A stretch of 64,000 nucleotides of DNA from Podospora anserina (taxonomy: Eukaryota), in contig CM030337.1 of the NCBI GenBank assembly GCA_017654855.1, positions 3,038,001 to 3,102,000 of the forward strand, read 5' to 3'. The number at the start of each line of letters is the position of its first letter. Position 1 is the first letter of the stretch. Below, in pieces: positions 42,968-61,127 of this stretch. Below the pieces are notes generated by a model, which was not told where the DNA came from, did no database searches, and was given only the letters and a program-made list of their open reading frames with translations. The position numbers and the translations under genes are program-made.

Positions 42968-43377
42968 GGAAGGTTTGGAGTTGGAGTTGGTTGGAGTTGT
43001 ATAGATGGAATCCTTCAACCTCGTCGTCAATTTCGAACGCTAGCATCCAAGTCCATGTGCTCATTCCAGAAGAAGGTCGCCACTGTTTGACAATGCGGCT
43101 GACTACGAGGCAGTTGAAGAGGTGCAGGGGACTTGGATCATCTGTCGTCTTGACCTGCGATTCCGCCTTTTTGCATGTTCAATTCGGTGTCTTTTCGTCT
43201 GAACCTACGAGCCGTACCCCATGACAGACTGGTTGCCGCCCTTCCGCTATTCCTTTCGCTTTCCCTCCTCTGTTTATACTTTGACTGGACCTCCTCCCTC
43301 TGCTTCGACGTGGCCAACTCGAAATGCTTCTCTGAAGACGAACCACCACGGAGCACCCGCCATCAACACAATCAACG

Positions 43378-44799
43378 ATGGACGGAACATCTACAGAAGA
43401 CGATGCCCTCTCCGGTATGGTTGACATTTTGTCTCTCGCCATGGACAACACATCTTTCAGCTCTACCACTAAACCAACCGCGACCTTTGAGCTGTTCAGT
43501 CAATTCCCCGCCGAGATACAGTGGTGCGTCTTCGAACAATTGCTCGACCTAGAAGGCCTAGGACGTGGCCCAGCAGTGCACTTCCTAACCGGTTTCCCCA
43601 GAACGTTGGCAAAGGCACTGTTCAGCTCTGACCCAGACGAGAGGATGGATACAGGGCTCAGGCATAACTTTGCACAGGGCATCGACTTTGTAACTCATGA
43701 TACCATGAGCCTTCTCGGAAGTTTCAAGCGCACAGATCGGCGCGGACGAGAGTATATCCCAAACGCCATCCCTCATCACATTCGTCTCCCGCAAATTGCC
43801 CAAACATGTTCGCTCGCAACGCGTGTAGTCCGAACTCACCAACAAAACAAGACGCCAGTTGGCCTGCACGGTGGCAGGTCTATTCTCGTCAACGAAGAGG
43901 ATGACTTGTTCTATTTCGACACCCTCGTCCTGTCAAAGAAGCCCCGCTCAGACCGTGTTTTGCATCTCAGATCGGCGAACACCATCAACGAAGAGCTGAC
44001 GGACTGTCTGATAAGTCCGGTCCCCATGGTTCATGGTGCAGATCTTCTCAAGGGCGTCCGCCGCTTGGCTGTGCCGGGCTGGGTGTCAAAGCTGACCGAT
44101 GGCGGGTGTCTAGGGTGGCATTTCCAGCCGAAACGGCAACGTGATCTGGTGGATTACATTGATAGCTCTTGCTCGGAAAGCGATTCGGAAGATTACGATT
44201 CCAGCGATTGGCTTAAGAAGGTGCCCTGTGACAGGTGCGGTCGCGTTATGGGAGGACATTTCAAGGTCACCTGGCCGGAGGAATACGTACTACTGGCTGC
44301 CGCTTGGCTTCCTGCCCTCCAAAGCATACACTATGTTGTTCGTAACGAGATTCCACCGCCGGGTTCACTCGGCTCTGATTACGCCCCCTGGCGGGCCCTG
44401 GCAGGTCCGAGCCCGCAAGAACCAGCCTTGGTGTTCGGAGATAGTTGGGTGACGACCGCTACAGCAATGTACCGACATAGAGGAAATCGCAAAAGCTCAC
44501 GATTCAGCACAGTGGGGGCTGAGCCTGCACAAACCTTTCAGTCTATCGGAGGATCCTTGGTCGAGCTGTTTGCTCCTATTGACTTCCACGTCTTGCTTCA
44601 CGCTTTCGTCACAGTGCCATTTTTCGATCTGGATTGGGCAGCATCGTTTCCTATGGACAGTCAGCTTCTCAAGGTGTGGAAAGACAAAATTCCCCATCTG
44701 AGCTTCAGATACCTCAGATGGGTGCCAGAGGGGTCGGACTTACTTCCTTGGAAGGCGGATCTGAAGCCGCATGGTACACCCAAGAAGAGGCGACAATGA
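43378..44799 (+). CDS. 2EXR/F-box-like N-terminal domain protein (473 aa)
   Basis: TFELFSQFPAEIQWCVF, DDLFYF, VRRLAV; intronless. Confidence 0.75.
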   Translation: MDGTSTEDDALSGMVDILSLAMDNTSFSSTTKPTATFELFSQFPAEIQWCVFEQLLDLEGLGRGPAVHFLTGFPRTLAKALFSSDPDERMDTGLRHNFAQGIDFVTHDTMSLLGSFKRTDRRGREYIPNAIPHHIRLPQIAQTCSLATRVVRTHQQNKTPVGLHGGRSILVNEEDDLFYFDTLVLSKKPRSDRVLHLRSANTINEELTDCLISPVPMVHGADLLKGVRRLAVPGWVSKLTDGGCLGWHFQPKRQRDLVDYIDSSCSESDSEDYDSSDWLKKVPCDRCGRVMGGHFKVTWPEEYVLLAAAWLPALQSIHYVVRNEIPPPGSLGSDYAPWRALAGPSPQEPALVFGDSWVTTATAMYRHRGNRKSSRFSTVGAEPAQTFQSIGGSLVELFAPIDFHVLLHAFVTVPFFDLDWAASFPMDSQLLKVWKDKIPHLSFRYLRWVPEGSDLLPWKADLKPHGTPKKRRQ

Positions 44800-47792: not shown

Positions 47793-49490
47793 CTACACTC
47801 TCTGGTCAGTAGCTTGAATTCCATCCTTCGACGACCTCCTCTTCACCCCTTCCAGTTCCACATCGAGCACCTTGTCCACGTTCTTCTGAATCTTGTCCTG
47901 CATCTCCTTGCCCTCAAACATGAAGCTGAGTTCCTCAAGTGTGCGATTGTGTGTCTCAGGGAAGAGAAGATACACCGTAGCAATCTCGATCAGAATCCAG
48001 ACGCAGTACACAATGTAGTACTTCCATCCAATGGCGTCTAACGCAATGGGGTTGACATATGTGTTGAAGAAGACCGCAAATCGGACCGTCAACTGCTCAA
48101 CCGCGATACCCTTTGCGCGTTGTTGATAAGGGAAGATCTCAACCATGTACGTGTATGCCAGGGCGTTCCAACCAATGTTGTAGAACCTACCCCTATTGTC
48201 AGTCAAATCTCCCATGTCAGGACACAAAAATACTCACGGCGAATAAACAAAAATAAACACCAGCACCGGTATGGCCGCAGCGCTACTATTCTCAATCGTC
48301 GCCCTCGCGCTCGCAATAGTCCAAACAACATACACCACCGCCGTCCCAATCGTGCATATCAGAAACATCCTCCTCCTCGGAAACCTCGGCGCGATCAACG
48401 CAATCGGCACAGCATTGATAAACCCCCAGCAAGTATTGCTCAGAATAACCTGCTGCACCGTCCTATTATCCGTGATGTTCACCAACGCCAAAATCTTCTT
48501 CATGTAGAAACTCAACAACCCATTCCCTGACCACTGCGTGAAAAACCCGACTACCGCTGCGAGGAGGAAACGACGTCTCATGGCAGCGTCACGGAAGACA
48601 TCCCCCCACACAAACCGCGAGGCAAGTTCTTTCTCCGCCGCGATGGTAGATTGAATTTGCGCGTATTCCAATCTGACAAACTCGTCCCCGTCTTTACCCT
48701 CAGAGTGGTATTTTTGCAGAATGGCAAACGCTTCCTCACCGCGGTCTTGGCTGACGAGCCAGCGGGGTGACTCGGGGCACCAGTGCATGAAGCCGAGTTG
48801 GAACGCGCTCGGGACGAGTTGCAACAGGCTGGGGAGACGCCAGGCCCAGGTTGATTCCATTTGAAAGGTGCCGTAGGTTGTCCCTGCTGCGATGATGGCG
48901 CCGACGAACCAGGATGCGTTGAAGAGGGATGTCATTACCGCGCGTTCGTTGGCGTAGGAGAGTTCACCGATCATGGAGGAGGCGTTTACGATTGCGAAGG
49001 GGATGCCGAAGCCGAGGACCCAGCGGGAGGCGAGGAACATGTCGCTGTTGCGGGCGCCTGCTTGGAGGCCGGCGCCCATGCACATTATGAGGGAGGCCAT
49101 GAGGATTGTGCGGCGGCGGCCGAGGTACTGGGAGATGGTGGGGATGAAGGGGATTGCCATGAGGGCGCCGAGGGAATACATTGCGTTGAGGAGGCCGAGG
49201 CGGGAGGAGGTTGGGTTGTCAAAGTCTATCGGGGGGTCACCGCGTCAGTGTAAGGGATGCGGAGAGGGGATAAGAGGTAACGTACAGTCAGTCCATGATT
49301 TGACAGCCTGGAGACTGTTCATCATCGAGCTGTCAAACCCAGAGGTCCATTCCACCCCGAGGCCAGTCGGCACAAGAATCAGATACAGAAAGCGAAGGTT
49401 GGGTTTCTTGTACCAGGGGATGTCATCCGCCTGCGCAATGCGGGTGAGCCGAGGGTCGGCATGTTCTTCTTTGGCGCCGATGATGGCCAT
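47793..49490 (-). CDS. MFS sugar porter (lactose permease/cellodextrin transporter-like)
   Basis: GFDSSMMNSLQ, GRR, WRLP..LQ, PESPRWL, QWSGNG, PETHNRTLEE; two introns. Confidence 0.95.
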
Positions 49491-50324
49491 CTTGGTGATG
49501 GTCGTTGCTGCTCTCTGTCTTGCTCTGCTGTGGTGAGGATATCCGGTAGAACGAAAACTTCACGGCAGGGTCATCAATTACTTATACCTCATCACCCCCA
49601 ACAATCTCCAACTACCCGGCAGCCGGGTATGTTACATGCATTCCCCCCATCCTGCCGTATCATCTTCCCCTTCCTGATCAACAAGCGGATCCTCCACCAT
49701 ACGTTGCGAGCTCAAATCCTGCCTTGTAGGTAAGGCATCTTGCACCTCGATAACGTGACGATCCTACAGGTCGGGCATATTTTTGTTAGAGAACCGATCC
49801 CGCGAATCAAATCGCTAACTACCAAGTATCGCCTAAATGGCACCTATGTACCGACATGCCAAGTCAACTGTTTGGAGTTGTTTCCTCCGACGTATGCGGG
49901 GTTGGCTTGTCTGCCCTGCCGTGCCCGGCCGACGGCGGATTTTGGGGAACGCGGGAGGGTGACGGGATGCAACGGTGTTACGTGGGGACCGGGACAGGTG
50001 TGACCGAAGAGCAGGGGGTGGTTCAGGTGTCGGTGTTCGGGAATAAGGAGCAATGCTGCTTAGTTGAGAAGGATATCAAAGGCTTTGTCATGCGAGAGGG
50101 TCAGTAAACAGAGGGAACAATGGAACGGGAGTGGATTAAAACATTAGTCTATTTTTGGGTTTTGCCTGGGTATCTTACTTTGTCTAGGTTATCTTGCCCC
50201 TTATCATTATGTCAAGATGAGATTAGAAATTAGTAGTAAGCAGCCACTGGCCCGCCAGTAGTGCCCGAAGCTTGTTTCTATGTGCATAGTACAGATACTA
50301 GTGTAGAGTTGGCGTGCTCACTTG

Positions 50325-50996
50325 CTACACCTTTGTTTTGCTGTTTGGGTCGCTGGCAAAGCGAAAGTCAAAGAACAGAGGATATACCCGAGCAAAGGCG
50401 GCCCTAAGATCCTCTTCTGTCTTGGCACCGGTGACCACGATCTTTCCGGTTGTAAAAATGAGAAGGGTTGGACAGGAGCGAGGTGTCCCATCTGCTCGAT
50501 AACCGAGATACTGCTTGAAAGACAAGCCTGGGAAAATCTCGGGGACAAAAGAGGCGCCAACAGTGACATACTTGTTGGCTAACCCCTCCAGTCTGATGTT
50601 GAAGCCAACATTGGCACTGCCAATGATATTCCGGACAGTGAAGTCGCGGAATTTCGGAGTGAAGCCGCATTTCTGGAGGGCGTAAGCGTGTTTCTTAGCG
50701 GCAAGGCGAGCCAGGGCTTCGCTCTTGGCACCTGTGACAACCATTCTGCCCGTTGCGAAGATCAGTGCTGTCGTTCGTGGATCGCGGATGCGCATGATCA
50801 CAGCATTGAAGCGACGCGGTCTGTATTCGACATTGCGGGCCCGTTGGGCTAGGTAGTTGAGGTCAATGCGACAGTCAAGGTTGACGGTGACGACGAAGTT
50901 TTGAAGTTTGGGGATGGGCCAGTCTGGAGGGTACTCGTGGGATTCGGTTTCTGGGATGATGTCTTGACGGCTGTCCATCTGGTTAGAGTCGGCCAT
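50325..50996 (-). CDS. Divergent TATA-binding protein paralogue (TBP-like factor)
   Basis: Two TBP repeats: LQNFVVTVNL...EYRPRRFNAVIMRIRDPRTTALIFATGRMVVTGAK and RNIIGS...PEIFPGL...LLIFTTGKIVVTGAK; AAAATGG start; no intron. Confidence 0.95.
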   Translation of the reverse strand: MADSNQMDSRQDIIPETESHEYPPDWPIPKLQNFVVTVNLDCRIDLNYLAQRARNVEYRPRRFNAVIMRIRDPRTTALIFATGRMVVTGAKSEALARLAAKKHAYALQKCGFTPKFRDFTVRNIIGSANVGFNIRLEGLANKYVTVGASFVPEIFPGLSFKQYLGYRADGTPRSCPTLLIFTTGKIVVTGAKTEEDLRAAFARVYPLFFDFRFASDPNSKTKV

Positions 50997-52087
50997 TTTG
51001 AAAAGATCTGTTGTGCTGTTACCTTGTTATGTTGAAAACACTTACCGTATCTGGCGGCGCTTGGTGAATGAGTTAGTAGAAGGTAGCCGGTTTATGGAGG
51101 CAGGCTGGGCATTGTTATATCTGATAGTCTTACTTCAAGACAAAGACTCCGACATCAAGACAATTGAAGGACAATGTCATTGTCGAACACAAAGGCTCTC
51201 TGTCCACGCTGTGGGTCCAAGTATGACAGTGCATTTGTTGAAATTTCGGTGGGCAGGTTTCGACCTTGAATTGTAGAGCAATATCGGAGAAGCCTTAATT
51301 GGATAATTGCGGCGGTGTTTCGGGCAGGAGCACTGGTAGGCATGCGACCTGTGATGTAAACGGGCACTTCGGAAACTCTGGAAAGCTGGAAAGGCATGAG
51401 GACGGGAACTGGAAAATGGAGCAGTGAGGAGCAACTAAGCGGTGGCCCGAGCTTCGTGGCGTGCTCGCTAATCTCACTATTGCTAGCGCCCCTTGCTGCC
51501 AAGTTATGGGGCATCAATCGACGAACTAGCCACCGGAACACCCCGCCCGATTTGCCAACGTCTCCATGGACTCGATATCAAACATCATGCAGTTTTCAAA
51601 ACTCTTGACAGAGGATGATTGAACCTAATAAACTCTTTTACTCGCCGGCGCCGCCTTGTTTTTCAATCTATGAAGGATCGCCAAAGAAGAACGAAATGAC
51701 GTGCATGATTGCCGTCTAGCCAACCCTCTCGGGCTCGGAGTGATGGCCCGAATTGACTTCGAGGCCGGCCCTTGAAACGTCAACACCGAAGCGACTGCCT
51801 GCGCTTGACTTAGCTTGTTTCCCCGCATGTCAAGATGGGAGCTACTGGCCAAACGTTTTGCTCAGCATTAGCACCCGCAGTCTCGAAGCCCGGCACGGGC
51901 ATACGATATGGCGATATCATCAATTTTGACCTCTGAAGACCCGCTGATGACGGAACAAAAACAGCAGGGCCCCCTCTTCATCACCCAGACACCCATGGCA
52001 CCATGTACACCAACAGTCCAACCACTTTTTTAGCCGTTCGATAACATCCACGTTGCCCCTTGCCACAGCACAACGACACCGGCCGGG

Positions 52088-53350
52088 ATGTCTCTGCTCG
52101 CTTTGTTCAGAAATCGAGATGCAAAAACCCCGACCGAGTCACTTCCGGCCAATGTGTCCAAGAAACGATTGAGGAAGAAATCTTTTGCTCGTCTCACAGA
52201 AAGAAACATCGAAGCTGTCCAGGAATTGAGCAGCCCCATGGGAAACCATGTCTCCTTCGAAAGCAACCCACGGTCCCAGCGCCACCCACGCGCTTCCGCC
52301 AACATCCCCGAGCTGCCATGCTTACCCATATATGAGACCTTGACACTGTCTATGGGATCTTCCAACGGGCCATGCCATGGTGGCAGTGAAACGTCGTCAA
52401 CGAAGGTCAAGGAAAAGCTGCGGCCTCTATCGAAATGTATGCCTCAGAATACCTCACGGGTTCACTTTCTCCCACAACAAGAGTCACCAACCTTCAAACT
52501 CGTCCCCAACATCCACCCAACGCTCACCCCGCAGCCAACTCCGAAATCCCCGGTTTACGACCGAGCTTCGATACTCGCTGACTCGTATCGATCAATACTT
52601 CCCGACTTTGATGCCATGGAACAAATCATCGAATCGGAAGATAACCTCTCTCTGCCAAAGAGTCCCTCTGAACAATGCCCCCATATTCCACTCTGCCGGC
52701 ACCCCACCAATCAGTCGGTATGCCGGCAGTCAACAGTCGCCAAGCAAGTCATCGTTGAGGTGCCATCCTCACCTCAGCACCACTCCTTCATTGCGCAGAT
52801 AGATTCAGTCGTTGAGCCCCAGTCAGCAGCATCTTCGTTTACCGTTGTGGAAAATAGCGAACGGAGTTCCGAAGAGGAGGCCACAGCGCCTGCCATTCCG
52901 CCTCAGGCTCCTCAACGGAAGGTTCAAGCCATCAACCAGAGTCGTGCATTGCAACAGTCCCCGTCAGTCGCAGCGAGCAGTAATCCTGCCTCCCCGAGGC
53001 GACCAAGGCCTCCTTCACCGCGGTTTAAAGTTACAAAAGGGGACAACACCAAGAGCTCTCTGGCGTTGCAAATTTGCACGCATATGCTCACTGACGAGCT
53101 GAAGAAGGCGTTGTTTGCCAAACAGGATGGTGTCGATGAGGATTCACAAGCTGCGAAGCTGCAGGTTTTGTTGTTGATCGAGGCTTATGAGGGTGTGATG
53201 GAGAGCTGTAAAGAGCAGCTTGCACAGTCAGAGCAAGAGGGGAGCAATGTCGAAGTCAAACATGCTAGGGAGGCGGTGGATATTTTGGGGCATTGGTTGG
53301 ATAGTTTGTATGAGATTTATGGCGAGGCCTTTGGACGTGATGAGGACTAA
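52088..53350 (+). CDS. Hypothetical protein, disordered S/P-rich body with a helical C-terminal domain
   Basis: 420-aa ORF; C-terminal LALQICTHMLTDEL...LQVLLLIEAYE...ILGHWLDSLY. Confidence 0.75.
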   Translation: MSLLALFRNRDAKTPTESLPANVSKKRLRKKSFARLTERNIEAVQELSSPMGNHVSFESNPRSQRHPRASANIPELPCLPIYETLTLSMGSSNGPCHGGSETSSTKVKEKLRPLSKCMPQNTSRVHFLPQQESPTFKLVPNIHPTLTPQPTPKSPVYDRASILADSYRSILPDFDAMEQIIESEDNLSLPKSPSEQCPHIPLCRHPTNQSVCRQSTVAKQVIVEVPSSPQHHSFIAQIDSVVEPQSAASSFTVVENSERSSEEEATAPAIPPQAPQRKVQAINQSRALQQSPSVAASSNPASPRRPRPPSPRFKVTKGDNTKSSLALQICTHMLTDELKKALFAKQDGVDEDSQAAKLQVLLLIEAYEGVMESCKEQLAQSEQEGSNVEVKHAREAVDILGHWLDSLYEIYGEAFGRDED

Positions 53351-53930: not shown

Positions 53931-54503
53931 TGCTGGTTGTGCGGTCGTTGTTTCTGTTGATGGTTTAACTCGAGCTTTACTTGTGCGGTGGAAGATGTTG
54001 GGTTGCTTACGGGAAATGTGATTTTGTGTCTGAACAGATTGTAGACTTGTTTGCTGTGATGGTTGAAGGTAGGGGTATATGGAGGGGAAAAGGAGGGTTC
54101 ATATACATGTGTTTTGGTGGTCAGCCGGGGAGGCTCGGTCAGGAGTATGCTTGAAGGCGAAACGGAAGCAGGCTCCAATGACCTTGGGGAAGTTTCGTGC
54201 TGTGGATAGTCGTACCAGGCCAGCAAGGTGTTACCGCTTCATGGACGTCCACAGAGTGTCGTGTGGTTTGGTGAAGTATGGACACGGGCGTAACGTGGGG
54301 CTGTGCGACGGGTGTGATACTGTTAAGAGTTCGGATGCTAGGATATAGGTGTGCCGGGAGCCTCGTGGCAACAAGTCACCACGCTGTCCTGTGCGAGTTG
54401 GGTATCAGGGATATCTAAGCTTGCATGTACCACGTACAAAGCATTGAAGAAGGCAAGCAGAAAAAGAACATTAGCGGCTAACCTCTGCTATGGTCGTATG
54501 ATA

Positions 54504-55424
54504 GCCGAAGCAATCACCCCCTCTGAATCCGGAGCTCGATATCGACTCCGATTACTCTTCAAATCCCACCTCGGCAAGGGCGCATCAGGCGGAAGCGCAG
54601 ACGATTACTACGCTTGCCTGTGGTGCGTGAGTGCGGCTGTGACAGTGCGGGAGAGCGACGCGACTGTCTTCCGGTCAGCGGACGACCTCCTGCAGCATTT
54701 ATCCCGACACCCGCAGCCATTACCTCAAATACCTGGGGTGAACGTTTGCTATGGACCCGAGCCAGAACAGCCCGATTTTGACCTGCACCTGCCCGACGGC
54801 CCTGTGCCCGTACCCATGCCGGACAACGTCACCCGGTTGGCGACGGCTATTGCAATCAAAGACCACTTTCGACGTCATGGGCGAGGGAAGCTCGAGAAGC
54901 CGCCGAGGTATGATGGTGAGATGCTTGAGTTTATGGAAGGGGCGAGGATCATGGGGGTCATGTTCCCCGAGAAGTGCGAGGGCAAGTGGTGTCTGGGGAG
55001 ACATGACGGAATGTTTGGGGCTGTCCCGTCGAAGGTGATTGAGCTCCGGGCGCCGCAGGAGAGTGAGGTTCCTGTGGGTGGGGAGAGTGGGATGATTGTG
55101 ACCACGCGGTGGAAGTGGACTCCTCCCAAATCCGGCGGTGTAGCTTGGGTGGCGTTTGGGAAAGGCGAGGTCATCACAAATGTCCAGTGTAGGTTGAAGT
55201 TCTGCAGCGCGATCATACGTCACGATTTTGGATTCGATCTAACTAGCGTGCTACAGGTCTTTATGCGGATTACTGGTGCTGGTATGGGACAAATAGCAAG
55301 GGCAAGACTGGTGCATTTCCCCAGTCACATGTCGATTTGCAGACCCTCAAAGCGCAAGAGTCAACTGCACCGAGACGTCCAAGCCGGGGATTGTTTTTGT
55401 TTGGAAGATAATCTCCGCGTCTGA
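54504..55424 (+). CDS. SH3-like domain protein, 5' end not found
   Basis: RYRLRLLFKSHL, YACLWC, ESDATVF, HLSRHP, WCLGRHDGMFGAVP, W..FGKGEVITNV; GCTAAC...TAG acceptor at ~54503; no clear ATG. Confidence 0.65.
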   Translation, partial: AEAITPSESGARYRLRLLFKSHLGKGASGGSADDYYACLWCVSAAVTVRESDATVFRSADDLLQHLSRHPQPLPQIPGVNVCYGPEPEQPDFDLHLPDGPVPVPMPDNVTRLATAIAIKDHFRRHGRGKLEKPPRYDGEMLEFMEGARIMGVMFPEKCEGKWCLGRHDGMFGAVPSKVIELRAPQESEVPVGGESGMIVTTRWKWTPPKSGGVAWVAFGKGEVITNVQCRLKFCSAIIRHDFGFDLTSVLQVFMRITGAGMGQIARARLVHFPSHMSICRPSKRKSQLHRDVQAGDCFCLEDNLRV

Positions 55425-57133: not shown

Positions 57134-59428
57134 TCAAGGTTCCAACTCAGTAATGACTCCCAGCGCTACAAGCCCCTGAAACTGAGCCCCATAGAATCCC
57201 GTAATAATGTAACCTGGAGGTGATGTGAACAGCTTCGTCTTGACGTTCCAACTCCGTGGCTTCGGTTCGTCCTCAAACTGGTAGTACCGTCCACGGTTGG
57301 TGAAGACCTAATGGTTCATTCTTCTGTTAGCTTGAGACCATTCGTCAGCCCGGTTGCTGTCTGTGTTGACACTCCCTAATAAGGTGGAATGGGCAGTGGC
57401 TGCAGGTGTGCAACATACCTTGAACAGCGCTAATGCTCCCTCCGACATCAACCATCTTTCACCATCTTCCTTATAGTATTTTTGACTGATTTCAATAGCG
57501 GTGATCCTTTCCCCTCCAGGGCCATCGATATCAAAGATATCGAGATTGTCCTCGTCGTCTGAGTCAGGCAGCGGAGCCCGACCAAACATCCGACAGTCCA
57601 ATGGAACGTCCTCCTTTTGAAACTCAAAAGCCATGATCTCGTCTGCCGTACTCCATGATATCCTATGCAAGTCCTTTAAGTATATACCTCCTGGTCCGCC
57701 GAAATGGGTCCAGAATAGCGGCTTGAATCCTTGAGTGTATGACTGGGCAGGAAAAAAGAACTCTTCGTTGAGGTTGAGGTGAGCCGGTGGTATATCAGGA
57801 TACCATACTGCGGAGTTTCTCAAGATGATGTTGTTCTCCACGTCGCTACAGTCAGCGTCTTCTTTCTTGACAATCGCAATTTCGACAAGTCTGAATCCCT
57901 ATAGCACCTTGTTAGCTCTGCATCTTCCATAGGATTTTTTCACATACGTCGGACCAAACTTCCAGTGCTGCAATATCTGCTACATTCCCAAGCCGTGTTG
58001 TTATTGCAGCATCATCGGGATCACCAAGCCAGGGGGCTGAGCTTGTTGAGTCCGCAAACAGTAGAGCGTGGATACCTCGTAACCCGACAGCAACGTTGAA
58101 AACTCTTAGCTTAGAGGCATCCAGTTCGATAGATCGCTCCTTTTCCTTGGGACCAATGTAGCCGACCTTGACAGTTTGTGAGTCTGATACGACTGATAAG
58201 CCCGCAATATACGTGAAGGATCCAGCCGTTATCGTCGAGGCGGAAATTCGGGCCCTTTCCTGAGGAATGGGCAGGTACTGCTTGTATCGACGGCGACATC
58301 CAGGTTTTAGCGGGCTCCATATATCAGAGTGCTCCGCTGCCGTCCCACCAACTCGTAAATTGAAGCCGGGTTTTGGAACCACCTGCTCATCCCCTTCTGC
58401 AACCGCGACCTTTGGGGTTAAACGAAGCTCCAAAATTTCCACAATGGGCAGAACGGAAAGCCAAATGTGTTGCCTGTTGTGAAGAGCGCCCCGGATCAGC
58501 TCATTCCAGTTATTGTCCTTGTCAGTGATTTGGTGGTACAGCGAGCGCCAATCGCGAGCACCTCTGTAGGGATGCCGACGAACTTCAAATAGCCATGAGA
58601 GGTCTGAGTTTCGACCTATGAATCGGGATGCCCAGAATTGTTGACAATCAAATAGATGCCAAAAGGACCGTGATGCGAGGCGGGCGTGAAGAGCATCCTG
58701 TGTAGGCAGATAGAAGGCAATTGCAGTGCAAAGCTCTTCCGGAAGTGAAAGGAATGGATCGTTTCTCGATATTGGACCAGATGAAATGTTGGCCGGGGGG
58801 GCAGGGACTTCACAAGTTCCAAACCTTCGGCTCAATATCTGATCAACGTCGATGGAAAATGGATCCGATGAGAAAGGGGGCGCCGTCACTTGCCTACTGT
58901 CAGCGACTCCCTCCCATGGGAATGACTGCTTCACAGCGCAGCCGTCTGGCGGACAGCATTCTTTGTAGCCCCAATCAAGCTTTCCGTACATAGCGCTTAT
59001 TAAAGAGTCCAAGACATCGAACAACCTATCAAGAGGCACCGGTTCTGGGTGGATGGCTTCCTCCAAAAGTTTCCAGCAGGCGTCGTGCATAGGAAAGCCG
59101 CGTCTGTTGTTGACTGCATATCCCCAGGTTCCAAACTGGTCCTGTTCTGAAATATTGTAGCCATCATCATCATATCGGCTAGCTGTATTCGGTGGAGCGA
59201 TAAAGACGCCACCTTCAGGATCGCTGTAGAGGCCAACACCTGTCAGGGTAATCTTCTTTTCCGTCGAACATAAGTAAACTGAGTAACGACGCGTCAGCAG
59301 GCGCGCCAAATGAGGTGACCTTTTTTGAGAGACTTACGGCCACGAAATTCATTCATCCAGGATGATGTGGCTGAGGGTTCGTAGATGCGCCATCCACAAA
59401 GGGGACAAGTAAAGATGATTGGACTCAT
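57134..59428 (-). CDS. F-box domain protein (fungal family with N-terminal CPLCG)
   Basis: MSPIIFTCPLCGW..WMNEFRG|, GFPMHDACW, F-box LSLPEELCTAIAFYL..ARLASRSF, FGGPGG.YL, IDGPGGERI, FTNRG; three introns. Confidence 0.85.
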
Positions 59429-60353
59429 TCTCTTGTCATGGTTGCTCAGTCGAGATTGATAAGCGCAGGATGGCCGCTCTTTGTTGTTATTTGTGAGAGA
59501 AATTGCATTGGATGAAGACCAGCCGGAGTGCGGGGTTGTGATCGCCTGAAAGCGTAAACAGTCGCAGCAAATGATTGGTTAGAAATGGTTCAGGCCTGGC
59601 TCTGTTTTCACAGCCACAACAAAGTCCCCCAAATTTCATATTATTACGTGGATGGAACTGTGCCGTCTTCACCTTGTATCAGCGGTGGGTACCTGAATGT
59701 CCCCTATCTAGACTTGTCACTTTTTTTAGAGTCAAAATCCGCCACCATTGCGACCGTCTGTGGCACAAGCCCGCCTAAGTCCAGCCTCAACTCCACCGGC
59801 TCAAGAAAGCTTAGTCTACGGCGTGAACTGGCCTCGGCCTTCTAGATCACCAACTCATGCAACGTAACGTCACAGTGGCTCTGGCAAGGTGTAATGTCAC
59901 CGCATAATCACCAAGCTCCATTGCTGCGCCTGCGTTGGTTTTAGGACACCGCGGTGTCGGCCAGGGCCGTCCTTGATTAGAACTCCTAGCATCGAGATTT
60001 GAAACAACACGATGGCATTCCCGAATTCACTTCCATGTCTTTGAATTCCCAAAAAAGAGCAGTTGGGAACGTGACAGATTTTGAACCCAGCAGCTATGGG
60101 TCACCAACGGCCCTCGACACCATGAAAATAACCAAGCGCGAAACAAGGAAGACGAACTGATGTTGTGTAGATGGGATCTGAAACTATTTTTACAACCCTC
60201 TTCTTTGTATAAAGATAGGATATCTGCACCGTCCAAGCAGTGAAGGTCTATAGAAGCAAAGCAAACAACAGCATTCACGACTTACAACTACCACTCACAG
60301 TTAATTATCTTTTCCAACTAACCACCAAAGACTTTTTTTCAGTAACCTTCAAC

Positions 60354-61127
60354 ATGTCTGGATACATGCACATCAGGGCCATCCTCAAGCTCTACGAGGC
60401 TTTGAAGCCCGGGAGCAAGGAAGATCGAGTTGACGCTCTCTGGGCCAACATCCTCCCTCTCTTTTTCCCTATCCTGGAGGACTTCGTCACCGAGACCCAG
60501 CCTCACCCCAAGCCGTCCACCGATCTTAAGGAAGACGTTAGAGTACGCTACGTCGAGCACAAGTCGGACAGGTTCAAGCCCCTCTTCGTCATCGAGAACA
60601 AGCGGACCGAGTTCGAGACCCATGGAGCAGTCTGGGACTCCGCCGCCGGCCAGCTTCTTGACTACCTCGAGATCGAGCGTGACACCGCCAAGCGCCAGGG
60701 CTTCAAGAACATCACCCTCTATGGCGCTGTGACCGTTGGCCGATACTCCAAGTTTTACATCTTCCCTGCCGAGGCCAAGAGCCTCCAGCCGTTCGAGTCC
60801 CTCGACCACCTCGAATTCAAAAAAGACGAGGCTAAGATTGTTGCTATTCTCAAGAAGATTTATGGTGCTGCTTCCCGCCCTCCCTCGCGGGCTGGTTCTG
60901 CCAGTGGCGTGGGGTCTCGCCCCGGGTCCCGCGGTAACACCACGGCTGCTCCTACTGGTCGCCCTGGAAGCAGTGGCAGTAACACTGCCCGGCCTGGAAG
61001 CAGTGGCACTACCGCTCGTCCCGGTGCTACTACCACTGCTTCCCGCCCCAGCACCACTGCCTCCCGCCCCGGCTCGAGCGGCAGTACCCGCCCTGGTTCC
61101 TCTGGAAAGATCTCCGGCTCCCGCTAA
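60354..61127 (+). CDS. PD-(D/E)XK-like protein with C-terminal RPGSS repeats
   Basis: AACATG start; E..P....D.RV, FVIENKR, QLLDY, LYGAVTVG; tail of SRPxS/RPGSSG repeats. Confidence 0.75.
   Translation: MSGYMHIRAILKLYEALKPGSKEDRVDALWANILPLFFPILEDFVTETQPHPKPSTDLKEDVRVRYVEHKSDRFKPLFVIENKRTEFETHGAVWDSAAGQLLDYLEIERDTAKRQGFKNITLYGAVTVGRYSKFYIFPAEAKSLQPFESLDHLEFKKDEAKIVAILKKIYGAASRPPSRAGSASGVGSRPGSRGNTTAAPTGRPGSSGSNTARPGSSGTTARPGATTTASRPSTTASRPGSSGSTRPGSSGKISGSR

Follow-up and report, generated by a model that had tools for sequence, protein, structure and literature searches.

A Second, Fast-Evolving TBP Gene in Podospora anserina: A Transcribed Member of a Sordariales Paralogue Family and Probable TBP-Related Factor

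Introduction

Fungi are usually viewed as having one nearly invariant TATA-box-binding protein (TBP), which serves all three polymerases. The stretch of Podospora anserina DNA analysed here, hereafter the window (64,000 nucleotides (nt); contig CM030337.1 of assembly GCA_017654855.1, positions 3,038,001 to 3,102,000), carries on its minus strand a gene for a protein with two TBP repeats and a strongly altered sequence. The locus raises a simple question: is this a second TBP maintained for a role of its own, a duplicate on its way to loss, or simply the TBP of the organism? A first-pass annotation, made from the letters alone, had read it as an intronless, highly divergent second TBP and as a candidate TBP-related factor (TRF). 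The answer reached here is that the locus is a real second TBP gene, which is transcribed and kept by selection, belongs to a fast-evolving family of the order Sordariales and most likely encodes a TRF, a reading to which we assign a probability of roughly 0.6.

The gene itself is not new, as databases hold these proteins under generic names. What appears to be new is the recognition of an order-wide, fast-evolving TBP-related family with rewiring in one lineage. No description of a fungal or Sordariales TBP paralogue family, or of Pa_6_7640, was found in full-text searches of the literature, supplementary tables aside. TBP paralogues are described for animals (PMC7221094, PMC3597702) and TRFs are likewise discussed for animals (PMC7221094, PMC3597702, bioRxiv 10.1101/2025.10.03.680374).

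The Gene and Its Predicted Fold

The element in question is the following.

50325..50996, minus strand: coding sequence (CDS) of the TBP paralogue, ortholog of PODANS_6_7640, stop codon included (open reading frame, translation, and Pfam, PDB and cluster matches)

According to the listing of open reading frames (ORFs) and their translations, the frame is intact, starts with ATG and encodes 223 amino acids (aa). The Pfam family TBP (PF00352) matches it in two stretches (E 3.1e-51, 171.6 bits against a cut-off of 22.9), and a phmmer search of the PDB sequences returned 35 distinct matches, with eukaryotic TBPs at about 1e-54 to 1e-57 and the Chaetomium thermophilum TBP (7z7n_D) at the top. These results bear out the intact 223-aa ORF with both TBP repeats that had been noticed at first sight. 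An AlphaFold2 model, built from 22 paralogues, has a mean predicted local confidence (pLDDT) of 87.7 and a predicted TM-score (pTM) of 0.74; it presents the order S1-H1-S2-S3-S4-S5-H2 twice, and Foldseek matches it to solved TBPs with a TM(target) of 0.8-0.88. By its two tandem repeats and its modelled saddle, the protein is a member of the TBP family. Its N-terminus consists of 23 residues unrelated to the conserved fungal N-terminal domain (residues 1-18 have a pLDDT below 50), and a conserved P-x-W-P-x-P segment stands ahead of strand 1. The ESM Atlas returned generic TBP clusters only, the first with mostly viral labels, and was left unused.

The Canonical TBP and the Sordariales Paralogue Family

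The window gene belongs to a 90%-identity cluster of 12 sequences, among them PODANS_6_7640, which lies on chromosome 6 of P. anserina S mat+, and orthologs from P. comata, P. pseudoanserina, P. pseudopauciseta and P. bellae-mahoneyi. The canonical TBP was found via protein clusters: the canonical protein of Sordaria brevicollis served as the query, and a cluster look-up then led to the Podospora gene. It is PODANS_4_8980 (P0242), a protein of 255 aa encoded on chromosome 4, one sequence being listed for five Podospora species, and it groups with the canonical clade in the trees. The core of the paralogue is only 50-54% identical to canonical fungal TBP, and 50-51% identical to the canonical rows of the alignment, which places it outside the near-invariant core. 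The claim of a second, highly divergent TBP is upheld by a canonical gene on a different chromosome, and the refuting condition set for it, that the genome has no other TBP, does not hold.

The canonical TBP ORF, as read on genomic contigs, is interrupted after residue 83, immediately ahead of N69 in yeast numbering, whereas the paralogue CDS is continuous across this point. Judged from the sequences, this difference would fit intron loss or a processed origin, though the paralogue gene has 5' introns of its own; the flanking hallmarks of a retrogene, a poly(A) remnant and target-site duplications, are not expected, because the duplication is old. A recent or Podospora-specific duplicate or retrocopy is ruled out by the order-wide clade described below.

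The nearest relatives are found in Cercophora samala (81% identity), Triangularia verruculosa (75%) and Apiosordaria backusii (67%), followed by numerous Sordariales proteins at 48-58%. A profile built from 22 paralogues separated 63 clusters, at 306-393 bits, from ordinary TBPs, which reached at most 303. An organism is named for 34 of the 63; all 34 read as Sordariales, which the taxonomy bears out for each of the eight species checked (8/8), and the families represented are Chaetomiaceae, Lasiosphaeriaceae, Podosporaceae, Schizotheciaceae and incertae sedis, with two further Chaetomiaceae species inside unnamed clusters. No Neurospora or Sordaria row was present among the paralogue clusters, though canonical TBPs of these genera are in the collection, and absence is not proven by this. 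A canonical TBP and a paralogue are both listed in eight species: C. samala, A. backusii, T. verruculosa, Corynascus novoguineensis, Thermothelomyces myriococcoides, Podospora conica, Echria macrotheca and Madurella mycetomatis. Six long, high-scoring plant and fish proteins of 305-420 aa were set aside from the paralogue count. These proteins (P0005, P0132, P0008, P0262 and P0013 from plants, P0278 from fish) outscore everything else in the TBP searches, and each probably holds more than one TBP unit or is a fused gene model.

In a careful tree of 53 rows, the divergent TBPs fall together in a single 26-row clade (support 100/99) with a long stem, within which the P. anserina-type group is a subclade of six rows (support 100/99). 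A quick tree of 50 rows, 14 of them canonical TBPs and the other 36 named paralogues, likewise unites the paralogues in a single clade (approximate likelihood-ratio support, SH-aLRT, of 100; stem 1.7). Animal TRFs were left out of both trees. Additionally, the substitutions G62W, A92V, S132A, Y139H, L146C and K167G are shared by 80-100% of the rows in both paralogue subgroups and by none of the 14 canonical rows; these derived residues support a single clade independently of the trees. The window protein carries the full signature, W26, P27, V56, A96, H103, C110 and G131, equal to W62, P63, V92, A132, H139, C146 and G167 in yeast numbering, each present at 80-100% in both paralogue groups and missing from all 14 canonical rows. 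The window gene is a member of an order-wide Sordariales TBP paralogue clade. Tree topology was rejected as a means of dating the duplication, given the near-invariance of the canonical cores and the long branches of the paralogues. A grouping near Allomyces TBP2 in the 53-row tree is probably a long-branch effect, and the 50-row tree hangs the clade from an unresolved base. Since the organism-named members are all Sordariales, the family looks to have arisen independently of the animal TRFs.

Residues of the Saddle

Residues are numbered after full-length yeast TBP (1rm1_A, 240 aa), of which chain positions 49-238 correspond to residues 13-212 of the query; the offset is +36 before the insertions and +26 after them, and the canonical Podospora row agrees with it. 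Three regions stand out.

50670..50720, minus strand: helix 2 of repeat 1 (residues 93-109), with paralogue-wide S132A, Y139H and L146C and the subclade change R141Y (alignment, model)
50526..50549, minus strand: C-terminal stirrup (residues 150-157, FVPEIFPG), with E186V and L189I, E188 and F190 kept (alignment)
50484..50510, minus strand: 9-residue insertion (residues 163-171) within the S3'-S4' hairpin of the second repeat, confined to the P. anserina-type subclade, pLDDT about 90 (alignment, model)

The four phenylalanines are kept (F63=F99, F80=F116, F155=F190 and F181=F207), as are both asparagines (N33=N69 and N123=N159), and T124 and T215 are also present; we take these to be the DNA-kinking and minor-groove residues of the TBP-DNA structures. 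The retention of the intercalating residues and of N69/N159, first read by eye, is borne out by the yeast-numbered alignment. So are the changes that had been listed from the letters: A100N (N64), I194S (S159) and V203T (T177) on the DNA-binding face and E186V (V151) in the stirrup, where the paralogue reads SFVPEIF and the canonical protein SYEPELF, all of them recovered by alignment to both yeast and canonical Podospora TBP. Beside E186V lies L189I (I154), with E188 (E153) and F190 kept. The residues E186/E188/L189, presumably the TFIIB-contact triad, read V151/E153/I154 and depart from the canonical pattern. Helix 2, which we assume to be an interface of TBP with its partners, reads AKKHAYALQKC in the paralogue and SRKYARIIQKL in the canonical protein. 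Two insertions relative to yeast TBP, of nine residues (163-171) and of one residue (V146), complete the picture; the remodelled helix 2 and an insertion of about 9 aa had likewise been recognised correctly, the single-residue insertion being added here.

A part of these changes is confined to the six-row subclade, namely E186V, S118T, R141Y, I194S, V203T, the insertion of nine residues, which is shorter in A. backusii, and the additional V146. In the subclade, E186 is V in five of six rows and M in C. samala, whereas it is kept in all 30 named paralogues outside it; E188 is kept in all 36. V203T is fixed in the subclade (6/6), and L205 is unchanged in all 36 paralogues.

Set against canonical fungal TBP (yeast SPT15, PODANS_4_8980, 7z7n_D), the paralogue thus has the same two repeats, saddle, four phenylalanines, N69/N159 and T124/T215, the same E188, the same F190-P191-G192 stirrup core and the same basic residues of helix 2 (K/R133, K138, K145). 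It differs by G62W, A92V, A100N, S132A, Y139H, R141Y, L146C, K167G, E186V, I194S, V203T and the 1- and 9-residue insertions. The animal TRFs (TRF1, TRF2/TLF/TBPL1, TRF3/TBPL2) offer a parallel, each being a lineage-restricted TBP duplicate beside an invariant TBP, with divergence on partner surfaces and the canonical N-terminal region absent, as in the paralogue. TBPL1 is reported to carry a Phe-to-Trp change at a universally conserved DNA-contact position (PMC7221094), whereas the window paralogue keeps its DNA-contact phenylalanines. A further comparison is the altered-specificity mutant TBPm3 (I194F, L205V, V203T), which binds TGTA as well as TATA, with relaxed recognition of the second TATA base pair (PMC1636458). 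The first-pass statement that positions 194, 203 and 205 define this mutant agrees with the same source. V203T is identical in the subclade, and position 194 is also changed, to Ser rather than Phe, while L205 is kept.

Evolutionary Rate and Constraint

In all eight species pairs the core identity is 97.2-100% for the canonical TBP and 53.7-82.8% for the paralogue. The premise that the fungal TBP core is nearly invariant holds in each of these pairs. The divergence of the paralogue is uneven, with 46 columns invariant among 22 paralogues. N69, V71, T73, L114, F116, V122, T124, N159, F190, P191, L205, F207, V213 and T215 are kept in at least 83% of the rows of each paralogue group, mostly in 100%; this set is, on our assumption, that of the DNA-facing residues of the TBP-DNA structures. 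The frame is open in all 12 sequences of the 90% cluster and in 36 named Sordariales proteins, so that the persistence of an intact ORF, taken at the outset as a hint of selection, is seen across the family.

The window allele was also compared with the allele found in the RNA runs described below. In the ORF, nine of 672 bases differ (1.3%), against 24 of 519 (4.6%) in the remainder of the transcribed stretch 50179-51369. Of the nine changes in the ORF, five are non-synonymous and four synonymous, a ratio per site (pN/pS) of 0.39 between two alleles, which fits moderate purifying selection in a tiny sample. At all five changed residues the RNA-run allele equals the S mat+ protein. The surrounding intervals differ as follows.

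49000-49225: 0 of 226 bases differ between alleles
49286-50082: 3 of 797 bases differ between alleles
51523-52500: 8 of 978 bases differ between alleles

The paralogue locus as a whole (50179-51369) is a peak of divergence between alleles under the same species label, with 33 of 1191 bases different (2.8%), about sevenfold above the adjacent stretch at 0.38%. This peak could reflect balancing selection, introgression or relaxed constraint. Two of the cluster proteins, P0129 and P0130, seem to combine parts of both allele types, as recombinants would.

Transcripts and Gene Structure

Sequencing runs were screened for sampled words of the stretch. It occurs wholly or partly in 20 runs, of which 14 contain at least half of the sampled words and 13 contain them at 0.98-1.00; six runs (X15-X20), classed as RNA by guess, contain 35-42%, and X21-X24 contain next to none and are uninformative. 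Four of the RNA-guessed runs, from four studies, were aligned as contigs to 49000-52500, and the ORF is covered by the contigs of all four. Four segments are missing from the contigs (49226-49285, 50083-50178, 50971-51022 and 51060-51133). One joint had first been listed as 50972 to 51036 plus 10 letters; re-read by hand, the missing segment is 50971-51022 and the 10 letters are window 51025-51034. On the minus strand, the four missing segments start with GTAAG, GTAAC or GTACG, contain CTAAC or CTGAC branch sites and end in AG. GT..AG joints with branch sites indicate that the contigs derive from spliced minus-strand RNA. Along the transcript, the following parts can be distinguished, all from contigs on the minus strand.

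51134..51369, minus strand: 5' exon and leader with upstream ATGs at 51234, 51180 and 51155
51060..51133, minus strand: 74-nt intron of the 5' leader (GTAAG...ACTAAC...AAG)
51023..51059, minus strand: small 5' exon, 37 nt in the window allele and 36 nt in the RNA-run allele, which has one base fewer at 51035
50971..51022, minus strand: optional 52-nt intron (GTAAC...CTCTAAC...CAG), whose removal takes away the ATG at 50996 and codons 1-8
50204..50324, minus strand: 3' untranslated region with eight allele differences; contigs end at 50204 (X18) and 50218 (X17)
50083..50178, minus strand: 96-nt intron between the 3' part of the paralogue and the 5' region of the downstream sugar transporter

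The upstream end of the leader is approximate, with contigs stopping at 51317-51380. X18 and X19 have the 52-nt intron spliced out, and X15 keeps it. The description of the gene as intronless therefore holds for the 223-aa CDS, which is uninterrupted, and fails for the transcript, in which the 74-nt and the optional 52-nt 5' introns are seen in RNA contigs. Because separate X17 and X18 contigs end at 50218 and 50204, the gene has a 3' end of its own about 110-120 nt past the stop codon. The X15 and X19 contigs (49954-50623) link the 3' portion of the paralogue ORF, over the spliced 96-nt intron, with the 5' region of the downstream major facilitator superfamily (MFS) transporter gene; they may represent read-through or a distal transporter promoter, a single transcript not being provable from contigs.

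The 5' end admits more than one product. In the S-type allele, the doubly spliced mRNA is in frame from the upstream ATG at 51234, giving the Logan-derived proteins P0131 (260 aa) and P0127 (251 aa). In three sister species, the annotated gene models connect the first exon straight to the body, a join that would be in frame in the window; no such join was seen in the four aligned runs. The upstream exon diverges between alleles at a non-coding-like level and the MADSNQ start is shared with T. verruculosa, which together argue that the 223-aa protein is the conserved product. We infer that the 5' introns and upstream ATGs are regulatory.

Proposed Function and Its Rivals

As a TRF, the paralogue would work along the following lines. 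It would fold as the TBP saddle and would bind and bend TATA-like DNA, given that none of the minor-groove and intercalating residues has been lost. Its partner surfaces would differ from those of TBP in helix 2 (S132A, Y139H, L146C), in the W-P segment before S1 and in the missing N-terminal domain. The protein could then build promoter complexes of an alternative kind at a subset of genes and use cofactors differently. Its base preference is possibly changed, and in the P. anserina lineage the TFIIB contact may also be weaker. Output seems to be tuned at the 5' end, through upstream ATGs and an optional intron that removes the start codon.

Several observations weigh against this reading. 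The expression data are contigs, and the runs are labelled as RNA by guess. The doubly spliced mRNA of the window allele stops at codon 78, because its small exon is one base longer (51035), and cannot encode the full protein; the leader with its first intron spliced and its second retained has an overlapping upstream ORF of 103 codons. Given the codon-78 stop and the upstream ORF, protein output may be low. Among the residues, position Q158 is R in the window allele, against Q in all 30 other paralogues and all 14 canonical rows, and T. verruculosa (P0003) has Leu at F99, the sole case in 36 named paralogues. The pN/pS is drawn from only nine changes and is compatible with fairly relaxed constraint, and both trees carry a long-branch warning. 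Lastly, the function is read from residues only.

A bolder version of the TRF reading holds that the family is a Sordariales TRF of independent origin, which nucleates an alternative pre-initiation complex on distinct core promoters, that it has been rewired further in the Podospora anserina lineage, that it evolves by recurrent adaptive or conflict-driven change, and that its output is gated by the intron whose removal takes away the start codon. The rewiring part points to an altered base preference at the second position of the TATA box (I194S/V203T), to a TFIIB stirrup weakened by E186V and to the new hairpin; the conflict part is drawn from the five amino-acid differences and the divergence peak of 2.8% against 0.38%. 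We regard this fuller scenario as speculative and less likely than not.

A decoy or repressor would occupy TATA boxes, or titrate TFIIA, NC2, Mot1 or TAF1, without a productive RNA polymerase (Pol) II complex, and would apply above all to the P. anserina lineage, in which the TFIIB-stirrup glutamate is lost. The intact DNA-contact set agrees with such a role, as do the replacement of E186 by V (5/6 subclade rows) or M (C. samala), the change of L189 to I, the absence of the canonical N-terminal domain and the helix 2 changes Y139H, S132A and L146C in all paralogues. However, E186 is present in 30 of 30 non-subclade paralogues and E188 in all 36, which rules out loss of the TFIIB contact as the original role of the family; we presume, moreover, that a lone E-to-V change at 186 may merely weaken TFIIB binding. 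A decoy is accordingly held to be rather unlikely.

Service to another polymerase system or to a narrow gene class, for example as a Pol III or Pol I initiation variant and not in a Pol II developmental programme, would account for the paralogue-wide changes falling on the convex surface of the first repeat and the stirrup region, as TBP contacts Brf1 and Pol I factors via the same stirrup and first-repeat convex surface. Insect TRF1 is a precedent, being named as a Pol III factor (bioRxiv 10.1101/2025.10.03.680374). Nothing in the present data is specific to Pol III or Pol I, however, and the extreme constraint on the canonical TBP of the same species suggests that the latter still serves all three systems, which makes this explanation improbable.

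A redundant duplicate drifting towards loss, and transcribed incidentally, for example via transporter read-through, would be expected to show several of the features reported above: a core identity of 53.7-82.8% against 97.2-100% in the canonical TBP, five amino-acid differences between two alleles of one species label, the R at Q158, a splice form without a start codon and contigs that join the ORF to the transporter 5' region. Dispensability would also fit with Neurospora and Sordaria not being among the listed members. Yet the frame is open in every member of the 12-sequence cluster and across 36 named species from four or more families, the DNA-contact and fold residues are kept, the coding DNA is three to four times less diverged than its own untranslated flanks, and the gene has its own transcript, with the separate X17 and X18 contigs ending at 50204-50218; drift is very improbable on this account. 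That the gene is the sole TBP of the organism is ruled out by PODANS_4_8980, which is present in P. anserina S mat+ and listed for five Podospora species, and a gene-model artefact is next to impossible, with the ORF present in the raw window and in 14 runs that contain all or nearly all sampled words, so that after checking nothing speaks for either beyond some records saying just "TATA-box-binding protein".

Genomic Neighbourhood

The first-pass annotation had placed the gene among many decayed neighbours, and this is not borne out: the guanine-plus-cytosine content is 0.46-0.58 in every 1-kb bin of the window, neighbouring ORFs bear domains (Sugar_tr/MFS, GFA, guanylate kinase, F-box-like with DUF7600), and the adjacent transporter is transcribed and spliced. 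The latter, a Sugar_tr/MFS transporter at 47793-49244 on the minus strand (Sugar_tr E 8.6e-57), is covered in all four aligned runs and has an intron at 49226-49285. The decayed look of the neighbours is best explained by introns that break reading frames. Elsewhere in the window, an ORF of 473 aa with F-box-like and DUF7600 domains lies beside an ORF of 196 aa without a family (together 57308-59333, minus strand), and long ORFs without a Pfam match stand at 43336-44799, 52034-53350, 54342-55424 and 60219-61127.

Significance

A second TBP family of this kind would be a natural experiment on how much the saddle may change with its DNA-contact residues retained. The natural V203T/I194S pair touches positions of the classic TBPm3 altered-specificity mutant. 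The family occurs in tractable, industrial and medical fungi, including Podospora anserina, Thermothelomyces, Thermothielavioides terrestris and Madurella mycetomatis, and knock-outs, tagging and chromatin immunoprecipitation are routine in P. anserina. The paralogue would therefore be a genetically tractable fungal counterpart to the animal TRFs, and a ready system in which to examine whether organisms other than animals also recognise core promoters in alternative ways.

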